A stretch of 64,000 nt of DNA from a virus (lineage: Duplodnaviria; Caudoviricetes). Location of the stretch: the IMG/VR virus record IMGVR_UViG_2851924183_000002, positions 10,130 through 74,129 of that record, one strand, 5' to 3'. Positions 29,268 to 61,360 of the stretch are shown one piece after another. The notes under the pieces were generated by a model. The model had not been told where the DNA came from, made no database searches, and was given only the letters and a program-made list of their open reading frames with translations. Position 1 is the first letter of the stretch. Each line of letters opens with the position of its first letter. Both the position numbers and the translations under genes were made by a program.

Positions 29268-29325
29268 TGGCTTGTTCCTGTTAGTCAAGTTTTAAACCTG
29301 ACACCAACACTTTCCACGGTATTGG

Positions 29326-29401
29326 TGACAGACTGAATAGGGGTGGAAATACCGTACTAACAGGTAACGGCCAGCCGAAGCTGCCCTATCCAGCCTGCCA
29401 T
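29326..29401 (-). ncRNA. C4/CI-type antisense immunity RNA
   Basis: Outer stem GGCAGGCTGGATAGGG/CCCTATTCAGTCTGTC, CAGC-TTCG-GCTG hairpin, loops CCTGTTAGT and TTTCCAC complementary to flanking target pairs. Confidence 0.85.
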
Positions 29402-29582
29402 AAAAGGCACAGCCGAATTTTACGCAAAAAAATAGCCGCATGGGCGGACTTTTTACGCCTGTTAGTGTTTTTAGGTTTCCACGCCTAACCACAGATTTTG
29501 CTGTGGTAAATTTAGAGTAGCTTAGATACTATATGCGCGTCAATACTTTATAAAAAATTGTGATTTGGGTGGGGGGTTGGGG

Positions 29583-30623
29583 ATGGGTGAGGAATTAAAT
29601 TTAAGCTGTCATAATGATACTGAACGCTTCAATAAAATAAAGTCAGAACTTTCATCTTTGAAAGATTTAATATCTAAAACACTAGATAAAGTTTGTGTTC
29701 CTATTGATCAAGCAGGATATTTTGAAAAATTATTAATAGATATAGACGAGAAATTTAATGAAATTTTTGATTATATTGAAAGACTTAATGTAATTTCAAA
29801 AACACTTGAGATTGAAATTGAAAATCTTATTTCCTTAAGTGGAGAGGAGATAAAAAATATAAGTGATTTTAATCATTTTAAGGCTTTCATTCTTGAATTT
29901 AAAGTCAAAATTTTAGTTTTAGCTAGAAGTGTTTTGAAAGACTTTCAAATTCAGACATATAAGGATTATAAGGGGAAGTCAGAAGAGCTTGTTGACGTGT
30001 TAAAGTCAAAAGAGGAGATGCTAAGTCTTAAAATTAATCATCTTAATACATTGATAGATGATCAGAAAAATATTAAAGTCCATAAAATTTTTGAAGATGA
30101 TTCAACAAAATTTAGATTAATAGCACGCTTCTATGAATTTGCATTTTATTCAATAGTGGGTGTATTGATACTCTATTTTTTAGGCTTAACATTTTATGTA
30201 AATAATTTTAATTTTTTATTTATTGAAGCCGATTTTCCAGAAAAAATTCATGGCAAACTTTCGCCAGAGTTTTATATTCAAAAAGTATCCCTGCTAGTAC
30301 TTTCTACAACACTTGCGGCATTTCTTTTAAAACGTTCGTTTATGAACCGTCGTTTGGCTGATGATGCCTACCGCACAGCTAAAGAGTTAGATGCACTTCC
30401 ACGATATATGGAAGGTATGCCTGAAGAAATGAAAGAAAAAATTCGCTTTGACCTTGCTTATAAGTACTTTGGTAATAGTATTCACCACGAAAGTTATACA
30501 GGTGGTGAGAACTTGATGCATGAAAACATTAAAGCTAATACAGACTTTATTAAAGCAGTGAAGGATTTGTCGCCAAAGGCAGAAGCACCAAAGGATGATA
30601 AATCACCGAAAGATGCGGCTTGA
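29583..30623 (+). CDS. Coiled-coil + 2TM protein, paralogue 1
   Basis: Long helical N-terminus, two TM, RRLADDAYRTAKELDALPRYME...RFDLAYKYFG. Confidence 0.8.
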   Translation: MGEELNLSCHNDTERFNKIKSELSSLKDLISKTLDKVCVPIDQAGYFEKLLIDIDEKFNEIFDYIERLNVISKTLEIEIENLISLSGEEIKNISDFNHFKAFILEFKVKILVLARSVLKDFQIQTYKDYKGKSEELVDVLKSKEEMLSLKINHLNTLIDDQKNIKVHKIFEDDSTKFRLIARFYEFAFYSIVGVLILYFLGLTFYVNNFNFLFIEADFPEKIHGKLSPEFYIQKVSLLVLSTTLAAFLLKRSFMNRRLADDAYRTAKELDALPRYMEGMPEEMKEKIRFDLAYKYFGNSIHHESYTGGENLMHENIKANTDFIKAVKDLSPKAEAPKDDKSPKDAA

Positions 30624-30730
30624 TATTTTATATTTAGTGTTTGTAACTGATTTTATTATAGAAAAATTTTTAGCTTAGATGCTATACGAACTTCAATATT
30701 TTAAAGAATGTGACTTAAGTTGAATTTAAC

Positions 30731-31762
30731 ATGATAATAGATGAACCAATAAAGAATTTAATTCGTAATACTAGTAGCGATAATCAGAAACTAATAGAAA
30801 GAATTAAAGATGATAATATGAAGATAAAATCAAAAATTACTGTTGAAATTGAAAAGGTGATAGATTACTTAGAGGAATTAAAAGACGGTAAGCATATTGA
30901 TTATCAAGCCAGTGATAAATATCCTGATTTGTTTGATCTTAATAAACACTTGATAGGTGGATGCGTCAGGCAAGCCGCAAGGTTAAAAAGTATAATTGAA
31001 AGTATTGAAACAGATAGTGAAAACTTAGATTATTTATTTTCAATATCCCTTCCTTTAAAAACTGTAATCAAGGAGTATGATGAGGAAAATTACTATTTAA
31101 TGCCAAATGATTTGGCTGTAACGAATGCTAGTTTATTTTCTATGGAATCATTTATCACAGCATTAAAACGTGAAAAAGATAATTACAGTCGAGTAATAAC
31201 AGATGAAATTAGAAATATAATATTACATGCTGATGATGAAATAAGTAGATTTCGTCGTATTAGAAATATAGCAGATAATGCGAAAACTGAGAATATTTAT
31301 GATCAAGCTGTTACTAAATATCGTGGTTTAGAAAAAGATTATAGATGGTATTTCTATTGGGCACTTGGACTAACGGTAGCAATTTCGTTAGGGACATTTT
31401 TTCTAAAAAAAGTATTAATTCCAGCTTTTCTTGGAAATGTTGAGTTTTGGGTACTTAAGGCTTCAATAATAGTAGTCGGAGTTACTTTAATTACTTATTT
31501 TTTAAAGCAATCTACTCATTATCAGCGTCTTGCAGACCAAAACTACCAAACCCAAGTAGAGCTACAAGCATATCCAAGTTTTATGGAAAGCATACCAACT
31601 GAAGAGGCCGCTTCGGTACGTAAAGAACTTGCGCTGAAATACTTCGGTCGTGAAATAGATGGAGCTGCTCATAAAGATATGAGTAACCTGATCTCTGACC
31701 AATTGAAAAGCACAACAGAAATGGTGAAAGCTGCAACTGATGTGTTGAAAGTTAAGGGGTAA
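30731..31762 (+). CDS. Coiled-coil + 2TM protein, paralogue 2
   Basis: Same layout; QRLADQNYQTQVELQAYPSFME...RKELALKYFG. Confidence 0.8.
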   Translation: MIIDEPIKNLIRNTSSDNQKLIERIKDDNMKIKSKITVEIEKVIDYLEELKDGKHIDYQASDKYPDLFDLNKHLIGGCVRQAARLKSIIESIETDSENLDYLFSISLPLKTVIKEYDEENYYLMPNDLAVTNASLFSMESFITALKREKDNYSRVITDEIRNIILHADDEISRFRRIRNIADNAKTENIYDQAVTKYRGLEKDYRWYFYWALGLTVAISLGTFFLKKVLIPAFLGNVEFWVLKASIIVVGVTLITYFLKQSTHYQRLADQNYQTQVELQAYPSFMESIPTEEAASVRKELALKYFGREIDGAAHKDMSNLISDQLKSTTEMVKAATDVLKVKG

Positions 31763-31765
31763 GGT

Positions 31766-32524
31766 ATGGCTGCGAATGTTGATGCTAAAGTAGATTTTAC
31801 TGCTATTCTGAGTGAAATCATGAAAAGTGAATATGGTTTAGTTTTCATTTGCTCATTACTTTTTATAATTGTTCTAGCTGCATTTTTATACATGTTTGGC
31901 AAGTCAGGAATAATTTCACACTTTAAAGTCTACTCTGAATATAGTAATAAAAAATATCTGAGAGAAATTGAGCAAAAAGAAGACCTTTTGAATGATGAAG
32001 CATTAAGCGAATTTAAAGGCGATATGGAATACCATATCAAAGTTTCTAAACTTGAAAACTTCTTAAAATTTAAGAACAAAGATATAGATTTACTGAAATA
32101 TATTATTTCATGCAGGGATTCTCAAAGAGCAATTCGTCTGTACAAAAAAGGCTGTGAGTATTTAGAAAAAGATAAAGAGACAAAAACATATAAGTTAAAA
32201 CCTAAATATACGAAAGAGAGTATAGAACTCCAAGAAAAGAGAACTCCTTATATGTACTTTGGTATAAATGGTATAGGTGGCCTACCAATTTTTTTAAACC
32301 TTATTTCTAGTTTATTTCCAGAGCTTATTTCTTTTAATTTTAATGTACTTGAAAGCATTTCTTTCTTTATAGTCTTTTTTATCATATCGCTAGTGTATAC
32401 ATTCAGAACTTTGAAACCATTTGCCGCGCTTTACTTTTTAGAGATAGAAAAAATAGATGAAAGTCAGCAAGAAAGAAATATTGCTAAGAATCCTGTCTTA
32501 GTTAAAGAAAATAAGGTTGGATAA
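31766..32524 (+). CDS. 3-TM hypothetical membrane protein
   Basis: 252 aa, AT-rich, starts 3 nt after the previous stop. Confidence 0.75.
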   Translation: MAANVDAKVDFTAILSEIMKSEYGLVFICSLLFIIVLAAFLYMFGKSGIISHFKVYSEYSNKKYLREIEQKEDLLNDEALSEFKGDMEYHIKVSKLENFLKFKNKDIDLLKYIISCRDSQRAIRLYKKGCEYLEKDKETKTYKLKPKYTKESIELQEKRTPYMYFGINGIGGLPIFLNLISSLFPELISFNFNVLESISFFIVFFIISLVYTFRTLKPFAALYFLEIEKIDESQQERNIAKNPVLVKENKVG

Positions 32525-32537
32525 GGAGCGGTAAAAT

Positions 32538-32855
32538 ATGATTTACGCTTTGATGTTTGGCTTAGGTATTTGGTGTGCGATCCCAGTACTTATGATTTGG
32601 TATTTGCTACTACCGAAAACTTACTTCCTGACTTTTAATGGTGAGACACCTTCACGGATGTCTATTTTTACACACCATTTCTTATCGATCCTTACGCTGT
32701 TTATGATTCTCGGTTTAGGCATCGAAACGGCAGTTAAGTATCCTGAAGGCACGATCGCGCCAGTATTCTTCTTATTGTCCATTATTTTAACACTCATATT
32801 TTGCGTGTACTTTGGGCGCAATAAAATCAATTTGGGTGATAAGAGAAGAGTATAA
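32538..32855 (+). CDS. Small 3-TM membrane protein
   Basis: 105 aa, AAGGAG RBS. Confidence 0.75.
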   Translation: MIYALMFGLGIWCAIPVLMIWYLLLPKTYFLTFNGETPSRMSIFTHHFLSILTLFMILGLGIETAVKYPEGTIAPVFFLLSIILTLIFCVYFGRNKINLGDKRRV

Positions 32856-33191: not shown

Positions 33192-33467
33192 ATGATGGGT
33201 TTTAATTTTAGAAAAAGTTTTAAAATTGCACCTGGCGTAAAACTTAATGTATCCAAAAAAGGAATCAGTAGTGTTTCTTTAGGTGGAAAGAGTGCAAGGG
33301 TAAATTTAGGAAAGAAAGGAACTAGGACTACAGTCGGTATTCCTAAAACGGGTCTTTCATATTCTTCATATTCGCAGTATGTTCGAAGCAAACCTAAAAG
33401 TAAAAGCTCTGTTCATTGGATTTGGATTGGAATTATTGTTTTCTTTATTTTGATTTGGATTTTCTAA
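33192..33467 (+). CDS. DUF4236-domain protein with C-terminal TM
   Basis: GFNFRKSFKIAPGVKLNVSKKG...TVGIPKTGLSY. Confidence 0.88.
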   Translation: MMGFNFRKSFKIAPGVKLNVSKKGISSVSLGGKSARVNLGKKGTRTTVGIPKTGLSYSSYSQYVRSKPKSKSSVHWIWIGIIVFFILIWIF

Positions 33468-33531
33468 AAGCTCTTTACGAGCTTTTAGTTTTATAGATGT
33501 AGGAAATATTCTTGGGTAGATAATTCTAAAG

Positions 33532-33675
33532 TCACCACCATCTTAGTGCCGTAATAATATACGAACACCGCCAGATGATCATACATAAGATAATCAGAAA
33601 ACTAACTTTCCAGTAGCCATATTTTTCCATGATGACCTCTAAACTTTTAACGATTAATGCTATACTTTCAGACAT
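33532..33675 (-). CDS. 47-aa membrane peptide (type I toxin-like)
   Basis: MSESIALIVKSLEVIMEKYGYWKVSFLIILCMIIWRCSYIITALRWW; TAAGGA RBS inside a hairpin. Confidence 0.7.
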   Translation of the reverse strand: MSESIALIVKSLEVIMEKYGYWKVSFLIILCMIIWRCSYIITALRWW

Positions 33676-33748
33676 GATTTGATCCTTAGTTGGTGTAAGG
33701 CTTGAATACAGAAACCTCAAAGACTGTGAATCTTTGGGGTTTTGCTTT
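33672..33748 (+). ncRNA. Candidate antisense RNA over the RBS/start of the 47-aa peptide
   Basis: Extended -10 TGCTATACT (33658-33666) and terminator AAACCTCAAAGA-ctgtgaa-TCTTTGGGGTTT-TGCTTT with a G.U pair on this strand. Confidence 0.6.
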
Positions 33749-33865
33749 GTCTGGTGAGTCTATTTTTGAAAGAAGCATTTTTCACGGACTTCAATTTGTT
33801 AGAGGGGATAATACAAATTGACTTTTCTTATTTTGGAAATGAGCTTTCAAGTTGAAAACTTGCAT

Positions 33866-33946
33866 TTAATTTATGAAATATAAGAAATAAATACTGATAG
33901 AAATACAGCCAATCATAATGCCCATGAGAAAAGGGTAGATCCACAT
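33866..33946 (-). CDS. 26-aa hydrophobic peptide
   Basis: MWIYPFLMGIMIGCISISIYFLYFIN; starts immediately after the previous stop, GGGAG RBS. Confidence 0.45.
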   Translation of the reverse strand: MWIYPFLMGIMIGCISISIYFLYFIN

Positions 33947-34108
33947 TTAGATCTCCCTTGCTCGCACTTTATCAATACAACGTTCAATCATGCTGTGCTC
34001 TTGTTTTAGCAAGCTTTGCATACGAATGTATTGATAGTCCAAAATCATCCATAAAAGAACCAAAGCCACCACAAACAAAACAATAAAAATAATTCCAAAA
34101 TGAATCAT
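33947..34108 (-). CDS. 53-aa single-TM peptide
   Basis: MIHFGIIFIVLFVVALVLLWMILDYQYIRMQ...; ATGA overlap with the TraR-like gene, GGAG RBS. Confidence 0.6.
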   Translation of the reverse strand: MIHFGIIFIVLFVVALVLLWMILDYQYIRMQSLLKQEHSMIERCIDKVRAREI

Positions 34109-34305
34109 CGGTATAAACTCCGCTTTAACTCTAAATTACTCTGGCAAGCAACACACAAAGTCACTGCACCATACTTTTGACGTTCTGGTGGAATGTCATT
34201 CCCACATTCTTCACACTCAGAAAGTGAAGGCTGTGAATAGTCCTTAGGTTGGATACGAACCTGTTCTAGCTGGCGTTGTTGAGCGATATCTATAATATCA
34301 GCCAT
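34105..34305 (-). CDS. TraR/DksA C4 zinc-finger protein
   Basis: MADIIDIAQ...CEECGNDIPPERQ...CVACQ. Confidence 0.88.
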   Translation of the reverse strand: MADIIDIAQQRQLEQVRIQPKDYSQPSLSECEECGNDIPPERQKYGAVTLCVACQSNLELKRSLYR

Positions 34306-34573
34306 GACGACTCCGAAGCTGGCGTGCGTCATGGTTAATGATGTTTCTTGCAAGCGCACATTGTGAAAGAGGAAGCTTGATAGCGGGGTTAGGTGTAGCT
34401 GATGGGGAAATCGTGGCAGCCCATTCCAAATGAGCCCGACCAGTCCAACCACATTCAAGGTTTTGGCACTGTCCATAAAGTGTTTTTAAAAGCGGATTTT
34501 CAACTTGAGAATGCCGAATAATCACTTTAGATCCGCAGTGCGGACAAGCATTCTGATTTCTTGTATTTGCCAT
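34298..34573 (-). CDS. ogr: Ogr/Delta late activator
   Basis: CPHCG...YGQCQNLECGWT...ISPSATPNP. Confidence 0.93.
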   Translation of the reverse strand: MANTRNQNACPHCGSKVIIRHSQVENPLLKTLYGQCQNLECGWTGRAHLEWAATISPSATPNPAIKLPLSQCALARNIINHDARQLRSRHG

Positions 34574-41321: not shown

Positions 41322-41394
41322 AGGGCAACCTTTTGTTGATGTTCTAGTTCATCAAAAGGCTTACATACAAAACCCCACGTTTTAAGCGCGAGGT

Positions 41395-47051: not shown

Positions 47052-47677
47052 GCTTTTGACACTCCTGTATCTGATCCACCAGATTGAACCCCACTATGCT
47101 TGTGGTTTTTAAGACTAATGCTTCCGGCATTCACATCAGATTCTGTACTGAAGTTGCCAGTAGAGTGACTGCTACCTTGGATCAATTGGCTGCCACCTAC
47201 TGTATTATTTCCAGTCATGGCAGTACTGCCATTGACCTGTAAATTACCGTTAATGGAGGTATCGCCATTGATCGTGATACCTCCAGATGCAGTAAGAATG
47301 GCCGTTCCTCCATTGGGGAGGATGGCTTGTAATGAATGATTAGCAGTGTCATAGCTGATCATGGCCCCATCCTCATAGACTCTTAATTTAATATTTGGGT
47401 TCAATGATGGAGTCGGAAAAGATTCATTGTTTAAACCAACCAAAACAATGCCGAGGGCAAGCTCACCAGTTGGGCTGAAGACGACACATTCCTCATTGAT
47501 GCTAGGTAAGTCATGACTTAGGTCTGCACCTGCGCGTAAATTAAATAGACGTAATTCATCGGTCACGATATCGCCGAGGTCGACTGTGACGGTATGAAAA
47601 GGTTTAGCAGGGGTAACGCTTTTAATTCGTCCTAAACGGATCAAATTTTCTAAGCGGCGATGGATTTCAGCACTCAT
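47048..47677 (-). CDS. Baseplate spike (P2 gpV)
   Basis: RRLENLIRLG, terminal HKHSGVQSG. Confidence 0.93.
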   Translation of the reverse strand: MSAEIHRRLENLIRLGRIKSVTPAKPFHTVTVDLGDIVTDELRLFNLRAGADLSHDLPSINEECVVFSPTGELALGIVLVGLNNESFPTPSLNPNIKLRVYEDGAMISYDTANHSLQAILPNGGTAILTASGGITINGDTSINGNLQVNGSTAMTGNNTVGGSQLIQGSSHSTGNFSTESDVNAGSISLKNHKHSGVQSGGSDTGVSKA

Positions 47678-47721
47678 GTGCCTACTTTGCGTTAAGGGTT
47701 CAAAGCTTGCATTAATGGCAA

Positions 47722-48222: not shown

Positions 48223-48750
48223 TTATGGTTTCTTCGCTAAAGGCATTTCGAGTGCGACTATATTTAAAGTTTCAACACTGGTCCACGTTGCTAAGAGGTT
48301 GCCTTGATCATCTAGCAATTCGCATTCGGTTGCAGGTGAAGCGGGTTGGTACTGAGGTTCTTCGGGATAAGAAAAGTTGTAGCCACCATGCTCTTGCAGT
48401 TGAATAATCACACGTTCTGTCAGTTCTAATTCAAACATGACATCGACTTTATCGTTATCAATAAATTCAGCCTCGAACTTCACAGCATCTTTGTTTTTAT
48501 CTAAATTGGCGAGTAACTCTGATTGGTGTACGCGAATCCATTGAAACAGTAAGAAGGCAATCAGGTCAGCATCACCTGTAAAGTCTTGAATGACAAACTT
48601 CACAGGTGAAATACTTTCCATGCCGTAGCCATTTGCAAGCGTAGTACGATAACGACCGCTTTCAATATGCATGCTGAGCTTATCTGGGTTGTCCTGGAGG
48701 AACTTCAGATGACTCACCAAATGTTCGCGCAGACTAATCGGCTTTTTCAT
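48223..48750 (-). CDS. Tail completion protein (P2 gpR)
   Basis: MKKPISLREHL, NPDKL, LELTERV. Confidence 0.9.
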   Translation of the reverse strand: MKKPISLREHLVSHLKFLQDNPDKLSMHIESGRYRTTLANGYGMESISPVKFVIQDFTGDADLIAFLLFQWIRVHQSELLANLDKNKDAVKFEAEFIDNDKVDVMFELELTERVIIQLQEHGGYNFSYPEEPQYQPASPATECELLDDQGNLLATWTSVETLNIVALEMPLAKKP

Positions 48751-49601
48751 GCAGTTTTTCTCTGGTAGTTTGGATCGAGGCGATTCATCACTCGAAGGAA
48801 CTTGCTGTCATAGCCCAGCTTTTTATAGTTGCGACCGTTATATAAGCTAAAGACTGCATCCCAATTCTCTTGGCGTAATGCTTCTAGCAAAGTCCATTTT
48901 TTCCCAGCGACCGTTCCCGACTTAAATTCACAAAAGCGGAGAAAGGCTTCAAACTGTAGGCTTTCACTTTGATAATGCTGCTCTACAAATTCCTGAACAG
49001 AGGAATAACCGAGGTCTTTCCAGTTTTCGCCCATCAATTGAAAGCGCCCCCATGAAGCCGACATCAGAGCAGAGTCTTCATCAATTTGCTTTGCTAAAGC
49101 TAACCGTGTGTATTCGGCAGCATTGCCGTGGTACCCACCTGTTTGGGTATTTATCACATTGGGATATTGGCTCATCATTTTGTCTGCAAAAGCTTTGCCA
49201 CGTTTCTGGCTGAGGTAGAAATACATACGGTGACGTTCAAACAGAATCTTCGGTCGACCATCAGGCAAATACCCTTCGCCTTGTGTTTCAACTTCGGCAA
49301 TCGCACGAATCACAATTTCAGGGACATCAAGCCGTTTTGCACCAATCGTTAAGTCCGCATCTTTTAGATGTTTAGATAGGTCCAGACCTTTGAGGGCATT
49401 CAATGTGGTATTCCCGACAATGCCATCCACTTTAATGTCCATCTTCTTCTGGAATTGAATCACGGCATATTCAGTACTTTCACCAAAGTGGCCATCGATA
49501 GATAGAGGTTTATTATTTTTACCTTTCATGCCATTTTTAATCAGAAGTTGCTGTAGCTCAGAAACGGCTGAACCCTTAGCTCCAAATTTAAGTAGCTTCA
49601 T
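48747..49601 (-). CDS. Modular endolysin (PG-binding + DUF3380 N-acetylmuramidase)
   Basis: DGHFG..TE.AV..FQ, PKILFERH, SASWGRFQLMGEN, YNG. Confidence 0.93.
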   Translation of the reverse strand: MKLLKFGAKGSAVSELQQLLIKNGMKGKNNKPLSIDGHFGESTEYAVIQFQKKMDIKVDGIVGNTTLNALKGLDLSKHLKDADLTIGAKRLDVPEIVIRAIAEVETQGEGYLPDGRPKILFERHRMYFYLSQKRGKAFADKMMSQYPNVINTQTGGYHGNAAEYTRLALAKQIDEDSALMSASWGRFQLMGENWKDLGYSSVQEFVEQHYQSESLQFEAFLRFCEFKSGTVAGKKWTLLEALRQENWDAVFSLYNGRNYKKLGYDSKFLRVMNRLDPNYQRKTA

Positions 49602-49870
49602 GATGGACTCCAAATTAGTTTGGCCACATTTCCTCTGCTGCGAAGCACGATGACAGCAAGAAGCAGTGCAAAGATGGCATCCCATAGGGTGACGGGATCT
49701 TTAAAGAAGAGAATGTGAACCGACTGCCCAAGAAAAGAGGCAATAAGCAATGTTGCCAGCCATGAGTAACCACGATGGAAAGCGGTTTCTTTAGGGCTAT
49801 AACAAGCAATGCGGATACCGCAAATCAGATAGGCCAAAACAGCGATAAATTGAAATAAGAATTCGATCAT
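49598..49870 (-). CDS. Holin (3-TM)
   Basis: Three TM helices, terminal RGNVAKL. Confidence 0.85.
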   Translation of the reverse strand: MIEFLFQFIAVLAYLICGIRIACYSPKETAFHRGYSWLATLLIASFLGQSVHILFFKDPVTLWDAIFALLLAVIVLRSRGNVAKLIWSPS

Positions 49871-50226
49871 GAGGCACCTCCACCTCTAAAAGTCTTCCAA
49901 ATGTCAGACAGTTTGGATGTCTTCACCCAATCAACTGCTTTAATCAAAATGAAAAGTGAAAATGTGGATGCAATAAGCGCTGCTGTCGCATCGCTGGTGA
50001 TAAAAGTTCGGCTGGTAATTTCAGATGCAAGCAAATAGCCAATACCCGTTGAAAGCAGCATCGTGCGTAAGCGCTGCCAAGCAGATAAATCTTTTTCATA
50101 GGTGGCAATAAATGCTGCACCTAAAACAGCGCCGAGTAGGGCATTACCATTAATAAAAGGCAGGATGGAAACGGCACTTAAACTGATAGCTGTTGCCGTT
50201 GTGGTTGTCGTGGTAGGTTCAGGCAT
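49867..50226 (-). CDS. Putative holin (phiCTX-type)
   Basis: MPEPTTT, NALLGAVLGA. Confidence 0.8.
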   Translation of the reverse strand: MPEPTTTTTTATAISLSAVSILPFINGNALLGAVLGAAFIATYEKDLSAWQRLRTMLLSTGIGYLLASEITSRTFITSDATAALIASTFSLFILIKAVDWVKTSKLSDIWKTFRGGGAS

Positions 50227-50228
50227 GC

Positions 50229-50438
50229 TTAATCCCATAAATTAATTGTTTTTGTCATCTGCTGTTGGGCGGGGATATCAGGCAAAACAACCTCAGTGCC
50301 AAGCACCAGTATTGGACCTTGTTCAGCCAAAGCCGGGTTGCTTTCCAACACTGTCTCAGTAACACCAGCGGTTCGACCGTAATAGCGCCAGCAGATCAGA
50401 TCAATCGTGTCCCCCTGAACGGACTTCACTGTTTTCAT
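50229..50438 (-). CDS. Tail protein X
   Basis: QGDTIDLICWRYYG...NPALA...INLWD. Confidence 0.95.
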   Translation of the reverse strand: MKTVKSVQGDTIDLICWRYYGRTAGVTETVLESNPALAEQGPILVLGTEVVLPDIPAQQQMTKTINLWD

Positions 50439-52701: not shown

Positions 52702-53523
52702 TTAGTAAACGACAGCAGCATTACTGCCTGAATGCCCAGTGCTTTCAGGTCGTTTGTTATGATTTGGGTCAGGTTGATGATTGAATGAGTCTGAAAGGGT
52801 GCTGTGTTTTTGCTCAAGTTCGCTATATTGGGTTTTCAGCTCGTTTAGTTCCTGCTGCATTTTTGAGAAAGCCGTACTTTGCTTGCCAAAGGTTTCTGCA
52901 ATTTGCTCGAGTACTTTTTTGACTTCGGTAAAGTTCAGTTTGGCTTCTGCGCCTTGTTGTTCAATTTGCGGGGAGAATAGGTCACTGAACTTCTGAACCA
53001 TTCCAGCAAATAAGCCTTTGCTGTCGTCTTCAAACTCGATTTGAGTTTCTGCAGCAATGGAAAAGGCATTCTTCTCAGAGTTTTCACCAAACTTAGCAAC
53101 CATGCTGGAAAAGCTGAGTTTTTCAGTACCGATAGAAGCAGGGGAATCAGTCACTGCTAGGCCTACTAAATAGGCTTCGCCTTTACCTTGGAAATTCGGG
53201 TCAATTTCGATACTGGTGAAAATCTTCTGACGCTTTTTGTTCATTTCGACCAAGTCAGAAGTTGCGTCAATTTGTGCAAACAATGCCAGCTTCTTCTCAC
53301 CGTTCATGTCGACTTCTTCGGCTTTGACTGCAAGCACATCGCCATAAGCACGGAAGGAAGAATCGGGCATTACACCACGTAGGTGCTCAACCCAAATACG
53401 CGCGCCATATACAGACTGGTTGTAGTTTTTTGCAGCTTGTTCAATCCAAGAGCGTTCAATCACGCGCTTATCAATGGTTTCTCCTTCGACTGCAACACGA
53501 AAGAACTTTGATTTATTTGTCAT
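52702..53523 (-). CDS. Capsid scaffold (P2 gpO)
   Basis: KFFRVAVEGETID.R, YLVGLAVTDSPASIGTE. Confidence 0.95.
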   Translation of the reverse strand: MTNKSKFFRVAVEGETIDKRVIERSWIEQAAKNYNQSVYGARIWVEHLRGVMPDSSFRAYGDVLAVKAEEVDMNGEKKLALFAQIDATSDLVEMNKKRQKIFTSIEIDPNFQGKGEAYLVGLAVTDSPASIGTEKLSFSSMVAKFGENSEKNAFSIAAETQIEFEDDSKGLFAGMVQKFSDLFSPQIEQQGAEAKLNFTEVKKVLEQIAETFGKQSTAFSKMQQELNELKTQYSELEQKHSTLSDSFNHQPDPNHNKRPESTGHSGSNAAVVY

Positions 53524-53603
53524 GGTGTTTTAACCGTTCAGAAATTTGCTCATCAAATAATGAGCATCATTGAAAGTCCGACGGCATTAGTAAATAAATC
53601 TGC

Positions 53604-53626
53604 TTTGTAAGAGGGGATGCTACAAA
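53604..53626. promoter_or_regulatory. Ogr box (O operon)
   Basis: TTTGTAagaggggatgcTACAAA. Confidence 0.8.
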
Positions 53627-53743
53627 TCACAAGGAATGATCTGAGGTAGGAAAACTGAATAATAGGCACAAAAGCAAAAAGCCAAGAACGGCAATTCTTG
53701 GCTTTTTTATTTCCAACCCTTAGATCAAGTAAGGATCAAAAAT

Positions 53744-53923
53744 ATGAGAGATAACAATACTAAATTTTTAGTTAAGTTTCTAGGAGCGACAATGGAAGCT
53801 ATGAACTTAAAACCAGAAAGTTTTGTGAAAATATTCTGGAATCTTGCATTAATTGCTATAGCTCTAATGGCGACAAGAACACTTTTAAATATAATTTCAT
53901 TTTATGTAGGCCTACCTCAATGA
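53744..53923 (+). CDS. 59-aa membrane peptide (not in ORF track)
   Basis: MRDNNTKFLVKFLGATMEAMNLKPESFVKIFWNLALIAIALMATRTLLNIISFYVGLPQ; TAAGGA RBS in a hairpin. Confidence 0.65.
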   Translation: MRDNNTKFLVKFLGATMEAMNLKPESFVKIFWNLALIAIALMATRTLLNIISFYVGLPQ

Positions 53924-54060
53924 TGGAAAAACAATCTAAAAATAAGGAATTACGTACTTGGACTTATGTTGTCATATCCTACGTTTTAATTGGAATTTTG
54001 ATTACTCAAGCTGCACCAATCCTTTTAGCACTTTCTAACCTTATCCAAGTTCTTAAATAA
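53920..54060 (+). CDS. 46-aa membrane peptide (not in ORF track)
   Basis: MMEKQSKNKELRTWTYVVISYVLIGILITQAAPILLALSNLIQVLK; ATGA overlap. Confidence 0.65.
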   Translation: MMEKQSKNKELRTWTYVVISYVLIGILITQAAPILLALSNLIQVLK

Positions 54061-54065
54061 AGCCC

Positions 54066-54088
54066 TTTGTAAGAGGGGATCATACAAA
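54066..54088. promoter_or_regulatory. Ogr box (P operon)
   Basis: TTTGTAagaggggatcaTACAAA. Confidence 0.8.
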
Positions 54089-54132
54089 AGCTAAATCAAG
54101 CTTTGTACAAAGTGCATTGCTTTAATTGGCGC

Positions 54133-55917
54133 ATGAATACATTTGACACCGAACGCTTCGAGCTAACATTTGATAACCGAGTAAAGGCAAAGTTCCTTTA
54201 CTGGATGGGTTGGCGTATCAGCAGCATTGCGGAATACCTACAGGAAAATGAAAAAACCGTTCATTCATGGAAAGCCCGTGACGAATGGGACAAAGAAGCA
54301 CCTGAAGGAATTGCTGCACAGGCACTCGAAGCCCGTTTGTGTACCTTGTATTTGCTCGAGAAAAAAACACCAGGGGATTTCAAAGAAATCGACCTATTAG
54401 AACGTCAAAAAGACAAATATAGCCGACGCGAAAAATACCTCAGTGATGGCGGTAATGAAGCCGACATCAATCCCAAAATTCAAAACCGTAATGCCAAACC
54501 GAAAAAGATGCCTAAGCGAAACTTGATTACGCAGGCCATGATTGAAAAGGTTCAGGCAGATTTTGATGAGGGATTATTTGACTATCAACGTACTTGGTTC
54601 AAAGCCAAAAATCAGCGCTCACGCAATATCTTAAAAAGTCGTCAAATTGGCGCGACGTATTACTTTGGGCGAGAAGCTTTCGTTGATGCGATCACAGGCG
54701 GAGGTAATCAGATTTTTCTTTCTGCTTCCAAAGCACAGGCACACGTTTTTAAATCCTATATTAAGTCCTTTGCTGCTGAGTCGATTGATCTTGATCTACA
54801 GGGCGATCCAATCGTCCTGAACTTTGAAGAAGGTCCACCTTCAGAACTAATATTTTTAGGTACCAATGCCAAAACAGCTCAGGGCTTCCACGGCAATTTT
54901 TACTTCGATGAATACTTTTGGGTACATGGTTTTCAGACCTTACAGAAAGTTGCCTCTGGTATGGCTATGCACAAACGCTGGCGCAAAACCTATTTCTCTA
55001 CGCCATCATCAAAAAGCCACGAAGCTTTTAACTTTTGGACAGGGGAAATCTTTAACAAGGGCAGACCTAAAGATAAACGACTGAATATTGATGTCAGCCA
55101 TGAAGCCTTAAAAGATGGTCGACTCTGTGAAGACAAAATTTGGCGACAGATTGTCACTATTTTAGATGCTGAACGCGGCGGTTGTGACCTATTCGATATT
55201 GATGAATTACGCTTTGAGTATTCGGCAGAAAGTTTTGCCAACTTGCTCATGTGTATGTTCATGGATGATGGACATTCGGTCTTTCCACTTTCAGTTATGC
55301 AGCCGTGCATGGTGGACTCATGGGTACTGTGGGACAGAGACTTTAAACCTTTAGCCCTTCGGCCATTTGGTTATCAGGAAGTATGGGTCGGTTATGACCC
55401 TGCTGAATCGGGTGACACAGCGGGTTTAGTGGTGATTGCACCACCATCGATTAATTATTCAAAATTCCGCCTACTGGAACGTCATCAATTTAAAGGTATG
55501 GACTTTCAGGCGCAGGCGGCTTACATCAAAAAAGTTTGTGAAAACTACCGTGTGACCTACATTGGTTTAGACACCACAGGCATGGGGACAGGGGTTGCCC
55601 AATTGGTACGCCAGTTCTTCCCAGCACTAACCACTTTTAGCTATTCGGTAGAGGTTAAAACAATGTTGGTACTGAAAGCCATGGATGTGGTTCATCAAGG
55701 TCGTTTTGAGTTTGATGCAGGCTGGACCGATGTCGCACAAAGCTTTATGGCCATCAAAAAGACCATGACAGGCTCAGGTCGCCAATTCACTTTTGAAGCT
55801 ACACGTTCAGAAGAAGTAGGGCATGCCGACCTTGCTTGGGCGTGCATGCATGTCTTTGCAAATGAACCACTGGAAGGGCGTAACGTCCACAATACTGCTG
55901 CAATGGAAATATTCTAA
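54133..55917 (+). CDS. Terminase ATPase subunit (P2 gpP)
   Basis: ILKSRQIGATYYF, FYFDEYFW, VGYDPA, GHADLAWA. Confidence 0.96.
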   Translation: MNTFDTERFELTFDNRVKAKFLYWMGWRISSIAEYLQENEKTVHSWKARDEWDKEAPEGIAAQALEARLCTLYLLEKKTPGDFKEIDLLERQKDKYSRREKYLSDGGNEADINPKIQNRNAKPKKMPKRNLITQAMIEKVQADFDEGLFDYQRTWFKAKNQRSRNILKSRQIGATYYFGREAFVDAITGGGNQIFLSASKAQAHVFKSYIKSFAAESIDLDLQGDPIVLNFEEGPPSELIFLGTNAKTAQGFHGNFYFDEYFWVHGFQTLQKVASGMAMHKRWRKTYFSTPSSKSHEAFNFWTGEIFNKGRPKDKRLNIDVSHEALKDGRLCEDKIWRQIVTILDAERGGCDLFDIDELRFEYSAESFANLLMCMFMDDGHSVFPLSVMQPCMVDSWVLWDRDFKPLALRPFGYQEVWVGYDPAESGDTAGLVVIAPPSINYSKFRLLERHQFKGMDFQAQAAYIKKVCENYRVTYIGLDTTGMGTGVAQLVRQFFPALTTFSYSVEVKTMLVLKAMDVVHQGRFEFDAGWTDVAQSFMAIKKTMTGSGRQFTFEATRSEEVGHADLAWACMHVFANEPLEGRNVHNTAAMEIF

Positions 55918-56924
55918 TGTCTGAAACTCAAAACTTGCCTGCTGTGGCGCAAAACAATGCGATTCAAGCCTTTACCTTTGGTGACCCTGAACCTGTCATG
56001 AATACGCATGATTACATGAGTATGTTTCAGGTGTATTGGAATGGGACTTACTATGAGCCGCCAGTGAGTCTTGAGGGCTTGGCAAAGTCTTTCCGTTCTA
56101 CACCTTATTTGTCGACCGCTATTATTTATAAGCGCAATCAGTTGGTTTCTGCATTTAAGCCGAATAAGTTGATGTCTTCCAAAGCCTTTGAGCAGTTGGT
56201 CATGGACTTTTTGGTGTTTGGTATGGGCTATGTGGAAGCAGTAAAGAGTCGTTCAAACCAAGTGGTGCAGGTGACTACGCCTTTGGCCAAATACATGCGA
56301 CGTAAACAAGACCCGAAAGAATTTTTAATGATTACAGAAAACTGGAAGTACCACCATTTTGAGCGTGATTCAGTTTTTCAGGTACGTGAGTGCGATATAA
56401 ATCAGGAAGTGTATGGCACACCTGAATATTTGGCAGCTTTGCAGTCTGCTTGGTTAAATGAGTCTGCGACTTTGTTCCGTCGTAAGTACTATAACAATGG
56501 TTCTCATGCTGGGTTTATTTTGTACCTGACCGATCCGCAGCAGAATGAAGACGATGTAAATAATTTACGTCAGGCACTTAAAGACAGTAAAGGACCAGGG
56601 AACTTTAGAAATCTGTTTTTGTACTCACCCAGTGGTAAGCCCGATGGTATTAAGTTAATACCCGTGTCGGAAGTGGCAGCGAAGGATGAGTTTGCACATA
56701 TTAAGTCTATTACTCGGGATGACATATTGGCGGCTATGCGTACACCACCTCAGTTACTAGGCATTATTCCCAATAATACGGGTGGTTTTGGCTCTATTAC
56801 GGAAGCGCAAGAAGTTCATTGGAATGCGGAGATAGAACCTCTCATGCAAAGAATTGCAAACCCGATTAATGAGTGGTTGGGTTTAAATGTGATACAATTT
56901 TCTAAATTAGGTGTAAAAAAATAA
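55917..56924 (+). CDS. Portal protein (P2 gpQ)
   Basis: AFTFGDPEPV, FRRKYYNNGSHAGFILY, KGPGNFRNLF. Confidence 0.96.
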   Translation: MSETQNLPAVAQNNAIQAFTFGDPEPVMNTHDYMSMFQVYWNGTYYEPPVSLEGLAKSFRSTPYLSTAIIYKRNQLVSAFKPNKLMSSKAFEQLVMDFLVFGMGYVEAVKSRSNQVVQVTTPLAKYMRRKQDPKEFLMITENWKYHHFERDSVFQVRECDINQEVYGTPEYLAALQSAWLNESATLFRRKYYNNGSHAGFILYLTDPQQNEDDVNNLRQALKDSKGPGNFRNLFLYSPSGKPDGIKLIPVSEVAAKDEFAHIKSITRDDILAAMRTPPQLLGIIPNNTGGFGSITEAQEVHWNAEIEPLMQRIANPINEWLGLNVIQFSKLGVKK

Positions 56925-57337: not shown

Positions 57338-57799
57338 TTGTCTCAATTTGTATTTGCATATCACTCAAAATTTAATAATGACTCAGATTTCAAAGAAGTT
57401 TTTGAGGAGTTTTGCTATTACAAAGAAAATAGTGAACCTCATGAACACCCATCACCTAGACGTCATGCACAAGAAACCTACGAAAGTTTATCTCCTTTGT
57501 TTGGGCGTGATCGTTTCGATAAAAAATACCCTGAAGCTAGTAATCAGAATATTCAACACTTGCACGTAAAGCAACCTCATTCTAAGTGGGACTTTCTTGA
57601 TGGTTCTGCGAAAACCCAATGGGAATGCACCAGCGATAGCTATTTAGTTTATTCTTATTTCGAGCATAACGGTATACATCATTATTTTGTGCTTGAGTTT
57701 TATAAATCAGAAAGTCATGCTCAATATGAGCAGGATGTTCAAATTTTTATTCATGAAGCAGAGCAGTACCGATTGACTCAAATTAATTTGACTGCCTAA
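57338..57799 (+). CDS. YafO-family toxin (mRNA interferase)
   Basis: LFGRD...IQHLHV...W...QWECTSDSYLVY signature; TTG start. Confidence 0.75.
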   Translation: MSQFVFAYHSKFNNDSDFKEVFEEFCYYKENSEPHEHPSPRRHAQETYESLSPLFGRDRFDKKYPEASNQNIQHLHVKQPHSKWDFLDGSAKTQWECTSDSYLVYSYFEHNGIHHYFVLEFYKSESHAQYEQDVQIFIHEAEQYRLTQINLTA

Positions 57800-57889: not shown

Positions 57890-59455
57890 ATGAACCAACT
57901 TGATAAAAAAGACAATGCTGATTTAGACAAAATTGATAGAGATATCAATTTCCATCGAATCATGGTTTTTCTGATTCTTATTACAGCTATATTTTTTTAT
58001 ATGATTTTTATTAATCTTAAAGTTACTGAATCTGCTCAAAGTTGGGGACCAGTAGGCGATTTCTTTGGGGGCATTCTTAACCCAATTTTTGCATTATTTG
58101 CCTTTTACTGGCTGACATATTCAGTTCGACTACAAATTAAAGAGTTAAAAGAAACACGAGTAGAGTTGGCTAAAGCGACTAAAGCTCAAGAAGAGTCAGC
58201 AAAACATCAAGAAGAAATTGCTAGGCTTGAAAGTGAAAACGTAAAAACTCAAGTTGAGATTTTAGAGTTAAATAAAGATACATTGAAGAGTCAGCAAGAT
58301 GCAGCAATTGCACAACAACAACAAATTGCACTTCAAAATTTTGAAAGCCTTTTTTTCCAGTTGTTAAAAGCAAAAACTGATATTACGAATGATATTAGAT
58401 ATTTTAGAACAGCTAAAGGACATCAGGAAGCAGAATTATTTGTTGGAAAAGAAGCCATAAAATATGGTATAGAAGGATTCAAACAATCTCAAACCTCTAT
58501 GGCTTGGGAAGAATACTATCGGCATAACCTCTTAGATTACATGGGTAGTTATTTTCGAATTTGCTATCAAATTACAAAATTAATTGATAATACAGATGAT
58601 CTTAATGGTCATACTGATACTGAACACTACTCTAAAAAGAGAAAAGAATATTTTGATATCTTTAGAGCAACATTGACACAATATGAGCTTGAAGTATTTT
58701 TCTTTAATTGCTTAGGGAAATATGGCAAGGATAATTTTAAGAGTTTAGTTGAAAAATATGGGATATTTGAACATATTCTTTTTGAAAACAATGTTTATGA
58801 TCATAAGGCTATAAATAAAATATCTAGATTCGCGTATAAATATAATGGAATTGCTTTCGAAGATAGTGATGCATATAAATCTTATTTTGATGAGTTAAGT
58901 CGAATTAAATTTGGTTTGAGTGAGAAGGATTTTAATAGTATTTGTATAAAACTAAAAGATGTAAAGTTCATTTTAAATTTAAACTCAATTAGAGTTGCTG
59001 CATCAATTAATTCACTAATTTCTTGGAAGATGAATGAATTAATTTTCACGGAAAATAACATTGAAATTATTAAGGAAAAATCTATTTCATATTATAAAAA
59101 AATTAATGAAATTAAAGATTATGAGGGGTATATAAAAGAGTATAAGAGTATGATTGAGTATGTTGAAAATTATTTTAAGGTGGAGGGAAGAGAGCCAGTA
59201 TATTATGAAAAAGTTAGATGTAATTCAGCTTCAATTTACTCACTATCTGATTTGGATTCAAGTATAGACGTTTGCAAAGAACATATCGAGCAAAAAAATA
59301 ACTACTTAGGAATGATTGATTCATTCTTGGAGGAGCTTAGAAAAAATGAATATACGGAAACCGTACTAACAGTTATTAAATACAACATTGATTACTTAGA
59401 ATATTGTAAATATATGAATAACAATGAAGAAAAACAACAAAAGAAAAGTGCCTAA
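57890..59455 (+). CDS. Putative abortive infection protein (putAbiC family) with C-terminal extension
   Basis: WGPVGDFFGGILNP, QNFESLFFQLL, GSYFRICYQITK, YFDIFRATLTQYELEVFFFNCL. Confidence 0.8.
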   Translation: MNQLDKKDNADLDKIDRDINFHRIMVFLILITAIFFYMIFINLKVTESAQSWGPVGDFFGGILNPIFALFAFYWLTYSVRLQIKELKETRVELAKATKAQEESAKHQEEIARLESENVKTQVEILELNKDTLKSQQDAAIAQQQQIALQNFESLFFQLLKAKTDITNDIRYFRTAKGHQEAELFVGKEAIKYGIEGFKQSQTSMAWEEYYRHNLLDYMGSYFRICYQITKLIDNTDDLNGHTDTEHYSKKRKEYFDIFRATLTQYELEVFFFNCLGKYGKDNFKSLVEKYGIFEHILFENNVYDHKAINKISRFAYKYNGIAFEDSDAYKSYFDELSRIKFGLSEKDFNSICIKLKDVKFILNLNSIRVAASINSLISWKMNELIFTENNIEIIKEKSISYYKKINEIKDYEGYIKEYKSMIEYVENYFKVEGREPVYYEKVRCNSASIYSLSDLDSSIDVCKEHIEQKNNYLGMIDSFLEELRKNEYTETVLTVIKYNIDYLEYCKYMNNNEEKQQKKSA

Positions 59456-59486: not shown

Positions 59487-60321
59487 TTACCCCTCAATCA
59501 TATGCACATACTTATACCACTCATCCATTAGATCATTTGATTGATTTTCAGTAGGGTAGTAATGGTTTTTGCAATCTTTATAGTGGCGATATTTAGAATT
59601 TATTGACTCAGCAGGTGATAAATTTTGATACTCAATGTACGCAGATAAATAAGCGAAAATATTAGTGTTTGAATTTTTAGAGTAAATATCATTAGTTAAG
59701 AATTGAAAAAATGAAGCTCTCTTTTCTGCTGGGCTATTAGTACTATTAAAATTGAATTTATGGAAAACATTTTTATGGTGATTGTAGAAATGCGTAGAAA
59801 ATTCTGTATCTGTAAAGGAGGTAATTAATCTTAATTCAGAATAGATTAGGAAAATAAATAGAAAAACTTTTTGTGTCTCATTCAAATCATATTTTAATAA
59901 GGAAAACTTATTAATAATTTTAACAAGTTGCCTTGGATTAGGGGAATATGTCTTACATAAGGCTATGAAAGTATGAAGTTCATTTCTCTGAAGGTCAAGT
60001 TGATAATCTTTATTATAGTTATTTAGTATTTCAGCATACCTGCTCCCATCTAAGTCTTTATTTTTCAACATCACAGAAAAATCTATAAACTTCTCAAGAT
60101 AATTTGCAGTACTCGAAAATCCATAAAAATTATTGATCGATTCTTCTAGTTGATTTTTATTCACAGCAAGAATGAATACAACTTTTGGAATGTCAAAAAA
60201 GTGCTTGATACGTTCGATTAGGCGAATCGCAAATTCAGGTTTACAGCGGTCAAGTTCATCAACAATAAAGACTAAAGGTTTTTTCTCTTTTTTTGTAATT
60301 TCAGCAAGTTGAGCTTTAAAG
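59487..60321 (-). pseudogene. KAP-family P-loop NTPase, 5' half missing
   Basis: PLVFIVDELDRCKP Walker B, IKHFFD, YLEKFID present; no Walker A; frame begins at the IS end. Confidence 0.85.
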
Positions 60322-61360
60322 GGCTTTGTTGCACAAACATTCAAAAGCTAAACTTCTTCCAAGTTATCTAAATTTAAGTGGCAACTTGGGTGTGAGGTCG
60401 GCCTAAATCTGTAAATTTATTTAATACGGCCACACGTGCATGAATCTCATTGACTTGGCTTTGAAAGTTTCTCGCACGGAGTTTATCGCCTAATAATTTG
60501 ATGCAATGCATCTTGGTTTCTATCAGACTTCTGCGATGATAGCCTGACCAATTTTTCCATATTGTTCTTCCTAAACGTTTAACTGTTCGAAGTAATTCAT
60601 TTCGCTCTAGCGAGCTGGTCTTTGTATCTTTCCAAGGTTTCGCATTTTTTCTTGGCGGAATCACCGCATGTGCTTGTCGGTCTGCAATTACTTGACGGCA
60701 TTGCTTGGTGTCATAAGCCCCATCAGTATAGACAGAGTCAATCTGCTCATCTTGTGGAATCTGATCGAGTAAATCACCAAGCACTTGTGAATCACTCACA
60801 TTATTTGTAGTGAGTTGAATAGCGCGTATTTGAAGGGTTTCAGCATCTATACCAATATGAAGTTTACGCCATTGGCGACGATATTCAGGTTGGTGTTTCT
60901 TACGCTTCCATTCACCTTCGCCTAGAAACTTTAAGCCAGTAGAATCGACGAGTAGCTGGAGACCATTACTGCTTTTTTGATAGTTAATTGCAATATCAAT
61001 ATGCTTTTGTCTTCTGCAGATGGTGGAATAGTCTGGTGCTGTCCAATCTAATCTACAAAGATGAATGAGACTTTGCACAAAGCCAGTGACCATGCGTAAA
61101 GAAAGACGAAATAAGGATTTGATCATTAAACAGCATTGGATGGCTGTATCTGAATAAGTTTGATTTCGACCATGTTTACCTTTGGGTTGAGCGTACCATT
61201 GAGTCTTGGGATCAAACCAAATTGAGAGATTTCCTCGATTTATTAATGCACTGTTATAAGAAGACCAATTGGTTGTACGATAGATTTTAGGTGTGGGCTT
61301 ATTCATTTGAGAATTATATTGTGGAATAAGCCTTTAGAGATAGGTTTGTGCAACAAAGCC
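60322..61360 (-). mobile_element. IS5 family, IS903 group insertion sequence (1039 bp)
   Basis: 16-bp terminal IRs GGCTTTGTTGCACAAA; flanks GCTTTAAAG and CACGCCAAT do not match. Confidence 0.95.
60374..61306 (-). CDS. tnp: IS5-family transposase
   Basis: TTNWSSYN, LLVDSTGLKFLGEGEW, TDGAYDT, GYHRRSLIETKM. Confidence 0.96.
   Translation of the reverse strand: MNKPTPKIYRTTNWSSYNSALINRGNLSIWFDPKTQWYAQPKGKHGRNQTYSDTAIQCCLMIKSLFRLSLRMVTGFVQSLIHLCRLDWTAPDYSTICRRQKHIDIAINYQKSSNGLQLLVDSTGLKFLGEGEWKRKKHQPEYRRQWRKLHIGIDAETLQIRAIQLTTNNVSDSQVLGDLLDQIPQDEQIDSVYTDGAYDTKQCRQVIADRQAHAVIPPRKNAKPWKDTKTSSLERNELLRTVKRLGRTIWKNWSGYHRRSLIETKMHCIKLLGDKLRARNFQSQVNEIHARVAVLNKFTDLGRPHTQVAT

Follow-up and report, generated by a model that had tools for sequence, protein, structure and literature searches.

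Anatomy of the cassette

The DNA analysed here, which we call the window, is a 64,000-nucleotide (nt) part of an IMG/VR provirus record (IMGVR_UViG_2851924183_000002), and the genes around the locus of interest form a P2-like phage set; to judge from named homologues and loci, the host of the phage is Acinetobacter. Between the divergent scaffold gene O and terminase gene P lies a small cassette, hereafter copy 2, in which two overlapping open reading frames (ORFs), each for a peptide with one transmembrane (TM) segment, follow a structured leader, the whole being flanked by two versions of an Ogr-type activator box (Table 1). A related cassette, copy 1, lies elsewhere in the window. The two boxes around copy 2 have 2 differences, enclose 439 bp and repeat with a period of 462 bp. 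An earlier note on this DNA had listed the boxes, the leader hairpin, a CCTTA-N7-TAAGGA element, the ATG, an antisense TAGAAA-17-TATTGT and the two ORFs, and all of them lie where it had placed them.

The leader hairpin can be read from both strands: a terminator-finding tool calls one terminator-like site here, on the minus strand and with 14 pairs, and the plus-strand side ends in T6. We propose that it terminates an antisense RNA and at the same time serves the sense RNA as a 5' hairpin or attenuator. The antisense RNA predicted for copy 2 folds as a 5' stem-loop followed by the terminator (-29.3 kcal/mol, z -5.3), and on this RNA the CCTTA-N7-TAAGGA element is a piece of the longer 5' stem-loop. 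Each of the two peptides has one hydrophobic window of 19 amino acids (aa; Kyte-Doolittle 1.89 for ORF1 and 2.20 for ORF2), and at 59, 46 and, for copy 1, 47 aa, with Kyte-Doolittle values of 1.89-2.20, the peptides lie in the range of type I toxins, which are membrane peptides of less than about 60 aa. ORF1 also contains an internal Shine-Dalgarno sequence (SD), CTAGGAG (53780-53786), ahead of Met17 (53792), from which a 43-aa form could be made; the relatives P0009 and P0023, and by reading of the sequence ORF c of locus L006, start at the internal Met.

Table 1. Features of the two cassettes and of the phage genes around them (window coordinates).
Feature	Position	Strand	Remarks
Activator box 1, TTTGTAAGAGGGGATGCTACAAA	53604..53626		Ogr-type late-promoter dyad TGT-N13-ACA; for O leftward and, by geometry, cassette rightward
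-10-like hexamer AATAAT of sense (cassette) transcript	53658..53663	+	32-37 nt from box edge; predicted sense start ~53670-53672
AAAGCAAAA	53671-53679		
Bidirectional intrinsic-terminator-like hairpin (A-run, GC stem, T-run)	53676..53707		13 bp and 6-nt loop read on + strand
Predicted cis-antisense RNA, ~75-80 nt	53670..53747	-	complement of whole 5' untranslated region (UTR) and start codon; ends predicted from promoter and terminator
CCTTA-N7-TAAGGA small hairpin over SD	53718..53735	+	then TCAAAAAT, then ATG at 53744
ORF1, 59 aa	53744..53923	+	conserved N-terminal 32 aa and one TM segment
Candidate antisense promoter	53754..53782	-	-35 TAGAAA 53782..53777, 17 nt, -10 TATTGT 53759..53754
ORF2, 46 aa	53920..54060	+	charged N-terminus and one TM segment; start overlaps ORF1 stop (ATGA); phrog_23357, E 1.1e-15
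Activator box 2 (duplicate), TTTGTAAGAGGGGATCATACAAA	54066..54088		for P; -10-like TTTAAT 54121-54126, ATG 54133
Copy 1	33532..33762	-	-10-like TAGACT 33762..33757; predicted start ~33750; ORF 33675..33532 (47 aa)
Activator box before copy 1	33795..33817		
Copy 1 hairpin	33745..33708	-	
Copy 1 CCTTA-N7-TAAGGA	33700..33683	-	
Copy 1 candidate antisense extended -10, TGCTATACT	33658..33666	+	
Copy 1 predicted antisense RNA	~33673-33750	+	-21.5 kcal/mol, z -2.1; 5' stem-loop and terminator
Terminator-like hairpin closing copy 1, AAAAGCTCGTAAAGAGCTTTT	33466..33486		read from sequence
-10-like hexamers behind boxes			O AATGAT; P TTTAAT; V CAAAGT; FI AAGCCT; copy 2 AATAAT; copy 1 TAGACT
Ogr/Delta zinc-finger protein	34298..34573	-	PF04606, E 1.5e-14
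Scaffold O	52702..53523	-	PF05929, phrog_73
Terminase P	ATG at 54133	+	
Portal Q	55917..56924	+	
Major head, small terminase, two holins, endolysin, baseplate V, sheath		-	

Insertion into the O-P interval

Comparison with relatives argues that the cassette was inserted into this interval. Twenty-five loci encoding relatives of O were fetched, and the O-P interval was read in the five closest (L005-L009). That of L005 is identical to the window. In L008 and L009, whose O is 77% identical, the interval is only about 140 bp long and holds a single box and no cassette; the O start lies 80 nt from one edge of this box and the P ATG 44 nt from the other, which exactly matches the distances from box 1 to O and from box 2 to P in the window. 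In L006 (97%) about 950 bp separate two boxes, and the same leader and five small TM ORFs lie between them; L007 (96%; the same DNA as L086, an Acinetobacter genome) reads box, unrelated ORF, box, copy-2-type cassette, box. Each extra unit in the interval is thus accompanied by one extra box. From the single box of L008 and L009 it follows that the window carries a 462-bp insertion with the 23-bp box duplicated, and that the ancestral state was one dyad common to the divergent P and O promoters. A single PP/PO element common to divergent P and O has been described in the P2-like phage Smp131 (PMC3931495).

The empty, single-box sites of L008 and L009 and the other fillings of L006 and L007 bear out the earlier note, which had described a unit inserted between duplicated Ogr boxes and had envisaged relatives with an empty O-P interval. 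They are also what is expected of a moron, a unit present or absent between conserved neighbours. Scanning viral contigs for the exact motif CCTTA-N6-8-TAAGGATCAAA gave 56 loci, with box and leader together in only two (L041 and L069), which lie on the contigs of L007 and L005; the remaining 54 of the 56 are chance matches. Matches to 53300-54400 in the phage collection, found in 13 records, are confined to the flanking O and P genes.

The alternative fillings have their own arrangement. The five TM ORFs of L006 (reverse complement of 1400-2510) are of two types behind one leader, the last of them ending within the next box, and the unrelated ORF of L007 (reverse complement of 1260-2510), about 80 aa long, lies between two boxes with a terminator of its own.

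A conserved hairpin and predicted antisense promoter

The leader was compared across 42 distinct sequences, comprising both window copies, L006 and the loci of the ORF1 and copy-1 families, with exact duplicates collapsed; L126 and L132, whose N-termini are truncated or unmatched, were left out. All 42 have the hairpin of A-run, GC stem and T-run, in 36 different sequences, with its end 27-45 nt before the start codon and folding energies (dG) from -4.7 to -23.5 kcal/mol. By a crude count, at least 6 T fall within the 9 nt past the GC core in 31/42 leaders on the sense strand and 32/42 on the antisense strand, most of the misses being rows where core-finding took in the A/T arms. Every leader also has an antisense TAnnnT 5-15 nt from the start-codon complement, within codons 2-8, and in 32 of the 42 this is preceded by the TGn of an extended -10 element; there are 16 different 9-mers, with TGCTATAAT found seven times. 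The T, A and T of TAnnnT were set by the search pattern, so the result is the presence of a site at this place in every leader, with TG accompanying it. Copy 1 has the TG (TGCTATACT), and copy 2 and its near twin are without it.

Coding constraint accounts poorly for this pattern. When synonymous codons were resampled in 40 distinct sequences, using the codon usage of the loci themselves, the extended -10 was expected in 3.98 sequences and observed in 30, and the plain TAnnnT was expected in 26.8 and observed in 40. The codons at the antisense -10 are minority choices (ATA makes up 15% of Ile codons and CTA 11% of Leu codons in these loci). The argument for an antisense promoter rests on the consensus positions being kept while the free positions vary, and on this comparison the predicted promoter is conserved beyond coding constraint, together with the hairpin, across the family.

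With the antisense start set 7 nt after the -10, all 42 leaders predict an RNA of 68-88 nt whose first base falls between -1 and +6 relative to the start codon and whose end is at the hairpin. The two sequence-level marks of an antisense gene in a type I toxin-antitoxin (TA) module, promoter and terminator, are accordingly found throughout (-10 in 42/42, terminator hairpin in 42/42). RNAalifold, run on a MAFFT alignment of 36 predicted antisense RNAs, returned 3 pairs only; the hairpins are out of register in this alignment, and per-sequence folds were therefore used instead. As for the earlier note's picture of a structure conserved while its sequence diverges, it stands for the hairpin and the antisense promoter of the 42 leaders and fails for the CCTTA-N7-TAAGG hairpin, which is limited to a subgroup.

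A recurring string, TTTTTTAYRCCYAAAGAAAAA, joins an upstream terminator to the cassette hairpin in L103, L109, L111, L112, L117, L128, L129 and L131; it may hold a sense -10 or may be a recombination joint.

The two copies compared

Within the window the motif CCTTA-N5-9-TAAGGA occurs twice, against 0.17 expected (two or more were counted in 3 of 100 shuffled sequences), the second occurrence being that of copy 1 (33683-33700, minus strand), and profile searches in all six frames of the window found no third cassette. Both copies form the hairpin over the SD, with predicted SD pairing probabilities of 0.78 in copy 2 and 0.80 in copy 1. The loops of the two 5' stem-loops differ (CUUGAUC and GUUGGUG), but the two 5' UTRs have an exact 11-nt stretch, TAAGGATCAAA, in common over the SD, and predicted duplexes between the copies reach -48 and -52 kcal/mol (cognate pairs, -130 and -142 kcal/mol). 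Orthogonality of the two copies, which the earlier note had put forward, is unproven.

Apparent wiring to late promoters

Both cassettes are placed as late genes are placed in this phage. At up to 3 mismatches the activator box occurs 5 times in the window, against 0.00 expected, before the sheath gene, baseplate gene V, O, P and copy 1, and at O, P, V, FI and both cassettes the box edge is followed, at nt 32-38, by a -10-like hexamer. Since this geometry is that of true late genes, both copies look like Ogr-type late genes, with predicted starts at ~53670 and ~33750. The predicted sense starts coincide with the predicted antisense ends, so that each antisense RNA would match its 5' UTR over the full length. 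On neither strand is there, within reach of the box before copy 1, another gene that it could serve. Of the features expected of P2-type late promoters, the phage has an Ogr/Delta activator, whose translation holds a C4 zinc finger (CX2CX22CX4C, counted by eye), and a fixed distance from dyad to -10 (for predicted starts). Box 2 was considered as a leftward promoter of a long antisense RNA and was rejected, there being no -10-like hexamer at the right offset.

This wiring bears directly on whether the cassette is a classical type I addiction or abortive-infection module, in which a stable, constitutive toxin mRNA is held in check by a labile antisense RNA until prophage loss, or host shut-off by another phage, frees the toxin. 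The same anatomy of hairpin, antisense -10 and predicted RNA would serve such a module, as would small single-TM peptides and the presence of two copies in one phage, and nearby in the prophage lies further cargo that resembles defence genes (putAbiC domains, a YafO-like toxin, a KAP NTPase). Both window copies, however, sit behind an activator-dependent rather than a constitutive promoter, at other loci the cassette is preceded by one or two terminators and no sense promoter can be seen, and the peptides have neither homology to known toxins nor a PADLOC match. We regard this explanation as quite improbable; given the Ogr-type wiring of both copies, a guarded late gene fits better than a classical addiction module.

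Other late leaders of the phage have features of their own. The ATGs of P and V (54121-54135 and 47677-47690) both have their first base exactly 45 nt from the box edge and 7 nt past the -10-like hexamer, with no SD, and L009 has an in-frame TGA five codons upstream, which leaves the P ATG as the only possible start; the late mRNAs of P and V may be leaderless. A terminator-like hairpin stands between the sheath-gene box and its -10 (41373-41393 and 41330-41360, minus strand), and in the sheath leader CCTTTTG can, by reading, pair with CAAAAGG over the SD. Structured late leaders are hence not unique to the cassettes.

Peptide families and their distribution

ORF1 has 21 homologues of 37-66 aa, in which the N-terminal 32 residues are nearly invariant and the TM part is variable. 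The copy-1 peptide matches phrog_8452 (E 8.6e-12), and ORF2 also matches this family, weakly (E 0.014). Copy 1 and copy 2 belong to two related peptide families, and both phrog_23357 and phrog_8452 are without assigned function. The peptides gave no toxin family in Pfam, no match in PADLOC and only unnamed clusters in the ESM Atlas, and a tblastn search of the phage collection with ORF1 found no match.

The earlier note's idea of a cassette family is sustained by members at many other late-gene junctions of Acinetobacter phages. When 247 Acinetobacter species genomes were searched with a profile of the copy-1 family, 38 gave a match. The family is also present in five records of Acinetobacter phages, cultured or assembled, where it is annotated as hypothetical; the cultured phages TCUAN1 and vB_AbaSI_1 are among them. 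At 24 other loci the cassette is mostly in the same orientation as the flanking ORFs, and the named PHROG matches of the 47 flanking ORFs scanned are mostly to structural or lysis genes. The junctions lie between tail terminator and major tail genes, between assembly chaperone and tape measure, between tape measure and minor tail, and after the large terminase, and in L127, L130, L133 and L121 the cassette is directly upstream of endolysin-type genes. In TCUAN1 and vB_AbaSI_1 (L135 1657-1764; L136 1657-1764) a second, ATGA-coupled TM ORF of 35 aa follows, which is absent from the annotation.

We considered the cassette as the primary holin or lysis trigger of the window phage and rejected this, because the phage has holins (phrog_198 and phrog_217) and an endolysin of its own at 48747-50238, distant from both cassettes, and only some relatives in the copy-1 family adjoin endolysin-type genes.

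Conservation that is strongest from promoter to terminator, with a TM part that varies, could also mean that the RNA is the main product, either a small RNA by which the phage acts in trans on targets of the host or of its own, or an attenuator on the sense strand, with the peptide frame secondary. The two-hairpin fold of the predicted RNA, which resembles that of a small RNA, agrees with this. Even so, all relatives keep the frames open and preserve SD and start codon, the peptides fall into families that can be recognised, translation of the downstream partner ORF is coupled and no Rfam family matches, so that we hold a primary RNA function to be very unlikely.

Proposed mechanism

Overall, we believe that the element is best read as a late-expressed, two-peptide membrane cassette guarded by a cis-antisense RNA and type I TA-like in design, a reading to which we give a probability of roughly 0.6. 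Its foundations are those features that comparison of sequences brings out, that is, the insertion that doubled the box, a hairpin and an antisense promoter that are both conserved, and the late-promoter geometry. That both RNAs are made, that their pairing represses and that the peptides are harmful we infer from these, and the size and hydrophobicity of the peptides suggest a membrane-active, toxin- or holin-like role.

The pathway would run as follows. A 462-bp moron was inserted into the divergent late promoter that O and P share in this P2-like Acinetobacter prophage; the 23-bp Ogr-type box was duplicated, and two translationally coupled single-TM peptides came with the unit. An outward-facing promoter in the first codons of ORF1 would produce a cis-antisense RNA of about 75 nt that extends back across the start codon and the SD, covers what remains of the 5' UTR and stops at the bidirectional terminator hairpin. 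Consider, then, a lysogen: the sigma-70-type antisense promoter would be on and the activator-dependent sense promoter off, and any leaky sense RNA, which must also pass the terminator-like 5' hairpin, would be paired over its ribosome-binding site (RBS) and left untranslated or degraded. Late in lytic growth, once Ogr is made, box-dependent sense transcription would exceed the antisense RNA, and the membrane peptides would be produced.

Several observations weigh against this reading. The leaders are kin by descent, so that 30 of 40 sequences with an extended -10 are not 30 independent events. The antisense promoter of copy 2 is among the weakest of the family, with no TG and a score of 8/12 to consensus (the tool's threshold is 9), and a generic sigma-70 scan of 53300-54400 returned 0 promoter-like sites. 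The dyad is TGT-N13-ACA, whereas TGT-N12-ACA is quoted for P2 (PMC3931495), although the N13 form is what precedes the sheath gene, baseplate V, O and P. The leader hairpin, with its T6 tail, is also a good sense terminator, and late sense transcripts would mostly stop there, about 45 nt from their start. Most loci outside P2-like phages are without a box or a recognisable sense promoter and often have another terminator just upstream; read-through from the late operon would presumably express the cassette there. Across the family, predicted SD pairing does not exceed that of shuffles (0.54 against 0.50; 23/39 above control). None of the peptides matches Hok, Ldr, TisB, Ibs, ShoB, Fst or SymE in Pfam at E up to 1, and Rfam, which was read for Sok, Rdl, IstR and similar RNAs, gives nothing at gathering score for the cassette RNAs (sub-threshold best at most 22 bits, unrelated). 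Finally, the stretch occurs in 20 rows of sequencing runs, all of them assembled contigs, and four runs (X12, X13, X14 and X4) were aligned to it; the sole RNA library, X12, has one 7.6-kb contig that runs across everything and gives no starts, ends or strand.

Taken together with the late-promoter geometry, the co-orientation within late operons and the endolysin-type neighbours of L127, L130, L133 and L121, the silence of the generic scan and the TAnnnT count expected from codon usage alone would suit a simpler view, in which the peptides are ordinary late accessory membrane proteins, for lysis timing, exclusion or assembly, with no RNA control, the hairpin being an insulator or terminator and the antisense promoter a by-product of an N-terminal coding sequence that is AT-rich and conserved. 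We consider this unlikely. It does not explain the excess of the extended -10 in 16 9-mers whose consensus is fixed while the free positions vary, nor why distance and orientation always give an RNA of 68-88 nt that ends at a terminator; the hairpin, moreover, accompanies the cassette even in the window, where no co-directional gene lies upstream and there is nothing to terminate, and the window phage has its two holins and endolysin elsewhere. The guarded late cassette remains the reading we prefer.

At its widest, the guarded-cassette reading would make these elements portable modules of two peptides, found across the genus, each kept shut by an antisense RNA of its own and on only late, which P2-like phages capture by using the 23-bp boxes as docking joints and whose copies are insulated from one another by divergent kissing loops. 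We hold this extension to be doubtful.

Relation to known systems

SymE/SymR, AapA/IsoA, Hok/Sok and Ldr/Rdl are type I TA modules, and the cassette resembles them in having a predicted cis-antisense RNA that is short, has a promoter and a terminator to itself and overlaps the 5' UTR, the RBS and the start of a small protein, and in having peptides of less than 60 aa with one hydrophobic helix; in SymR the antisense promoter likewise lies just within the coding region. The cassette differs from these modules in that it has no sequence relationship to them, encodes two coupled peptides, has an activator-dependent late sense promoter and is a phage moron whose toxicity is putative. By sequence it belongs to no known type I family. 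The general properties of type I modules are treated in PMC2887945 and PMC8309996. The literature searched, supplementary tables not being covered, contained no description of the cassette, and the texts seen named no type I system for Acinetobacter.

Among Gram-positive bacteria, txpA/ratA and bsrG/SR4 of B. subtilis are prophage type I TA modules, and many such pairs overlap at their 3' ends. The likeness lies in a small membrane toxin (a predicted role in the cassette) and an antisense RNA on a prophage, and the difference in phylum and in family; we know of no Gram-positive prophage type I TA for which a link to a late promoter has been described. Clostridioides difficile, too, has type I TA modules on its prophages (PMC6563280, PMC5961336).

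The window's late promoters are like the P2-type Ogr promoters in their C4 zinc-finger Ogr/Delta protein and in the dyad before the P, O, V and F-type operons. They differ in a spacer of 13 rather than 12 and in six box-to-gene junctions rather than four, the two extra ones of which would drive the cassettes. Classical morons of temperate phages, such as bor and lom of lambda and gp15 of HK97, carry a sense promoter active in the lysogen. The cassette is like them an optional, terminator-bounded unit between conserved late genes, present or absent in close relatives; unlike them, its clear, predicted constitutive promoter points antisense.

Phage antisense RNAs that block the RBS of a gene kept off in the lysogen, and that are constitutive, include the C4 RNA of P1/P7 with icd-ant and sar of P22. 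The predicted cassette RNA is likewise a prophage antisense RNA over an RBS, and the window has a C4-type RNA of its own; C4, however, acts on a processed operon leader in an immunity region, whereas the cassette RNA would be the full complement of the 5' UTR of a late moron. The window's own C4 antisense RNA (Rfam, 69.2 bits; 29321-29405, minus strand) adjoins an isrK match (50.8 bits, barely over threshold; 29429-29507, minus strand), and the pair suggests a P1/P7-type antisense immunity element in a P2-like prophage.

Should the antisense RNA and the toxicity be confirmed, the cassette would represent a new type I TA-like family, widespread in Acinetobacter prophages, and, if the wider docking view were true, the first for Acinetobacter together with a new route of moron acquisition. 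It would be a clean natural case of an antisense lock on a late phage gene, and it would mean that duplication of a late-promoter activator's box is a way for new genes to join the late regulon. Phage records would then contain dozens of small ORFs and RNAs that lack annotation, the second coupled ORF of TCUAN1 and vB_AbaSI_1 being an example.

Other features of the window

Past the portal gene lies cargo of a different kind, comprising a YafO-like toxin domain (57338-57799), a putAbiC-domain protein (57890-59455), a KAP NTPase fragment with PDC-S20/QatA-like matches (59487-60344) and an insertion sequence (IS) transposase (60374-61306), and a weaker putAbiC-domain match is found at 27733-28671. 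From the C4 RNA to copy 1 run four co-oriented ORFs (29565-32855, plus strand) of 352, 343, 252 and 105 aa, none with a PHROG, Pfam or PADLOC match. Between a DksA/TraR-like gene and the copy-1 box (33866-34108, minus strand) are two tiny TM ORFs of 53 and 26 aa, whose matches are weak, for example PspB-like at E 0.0018.

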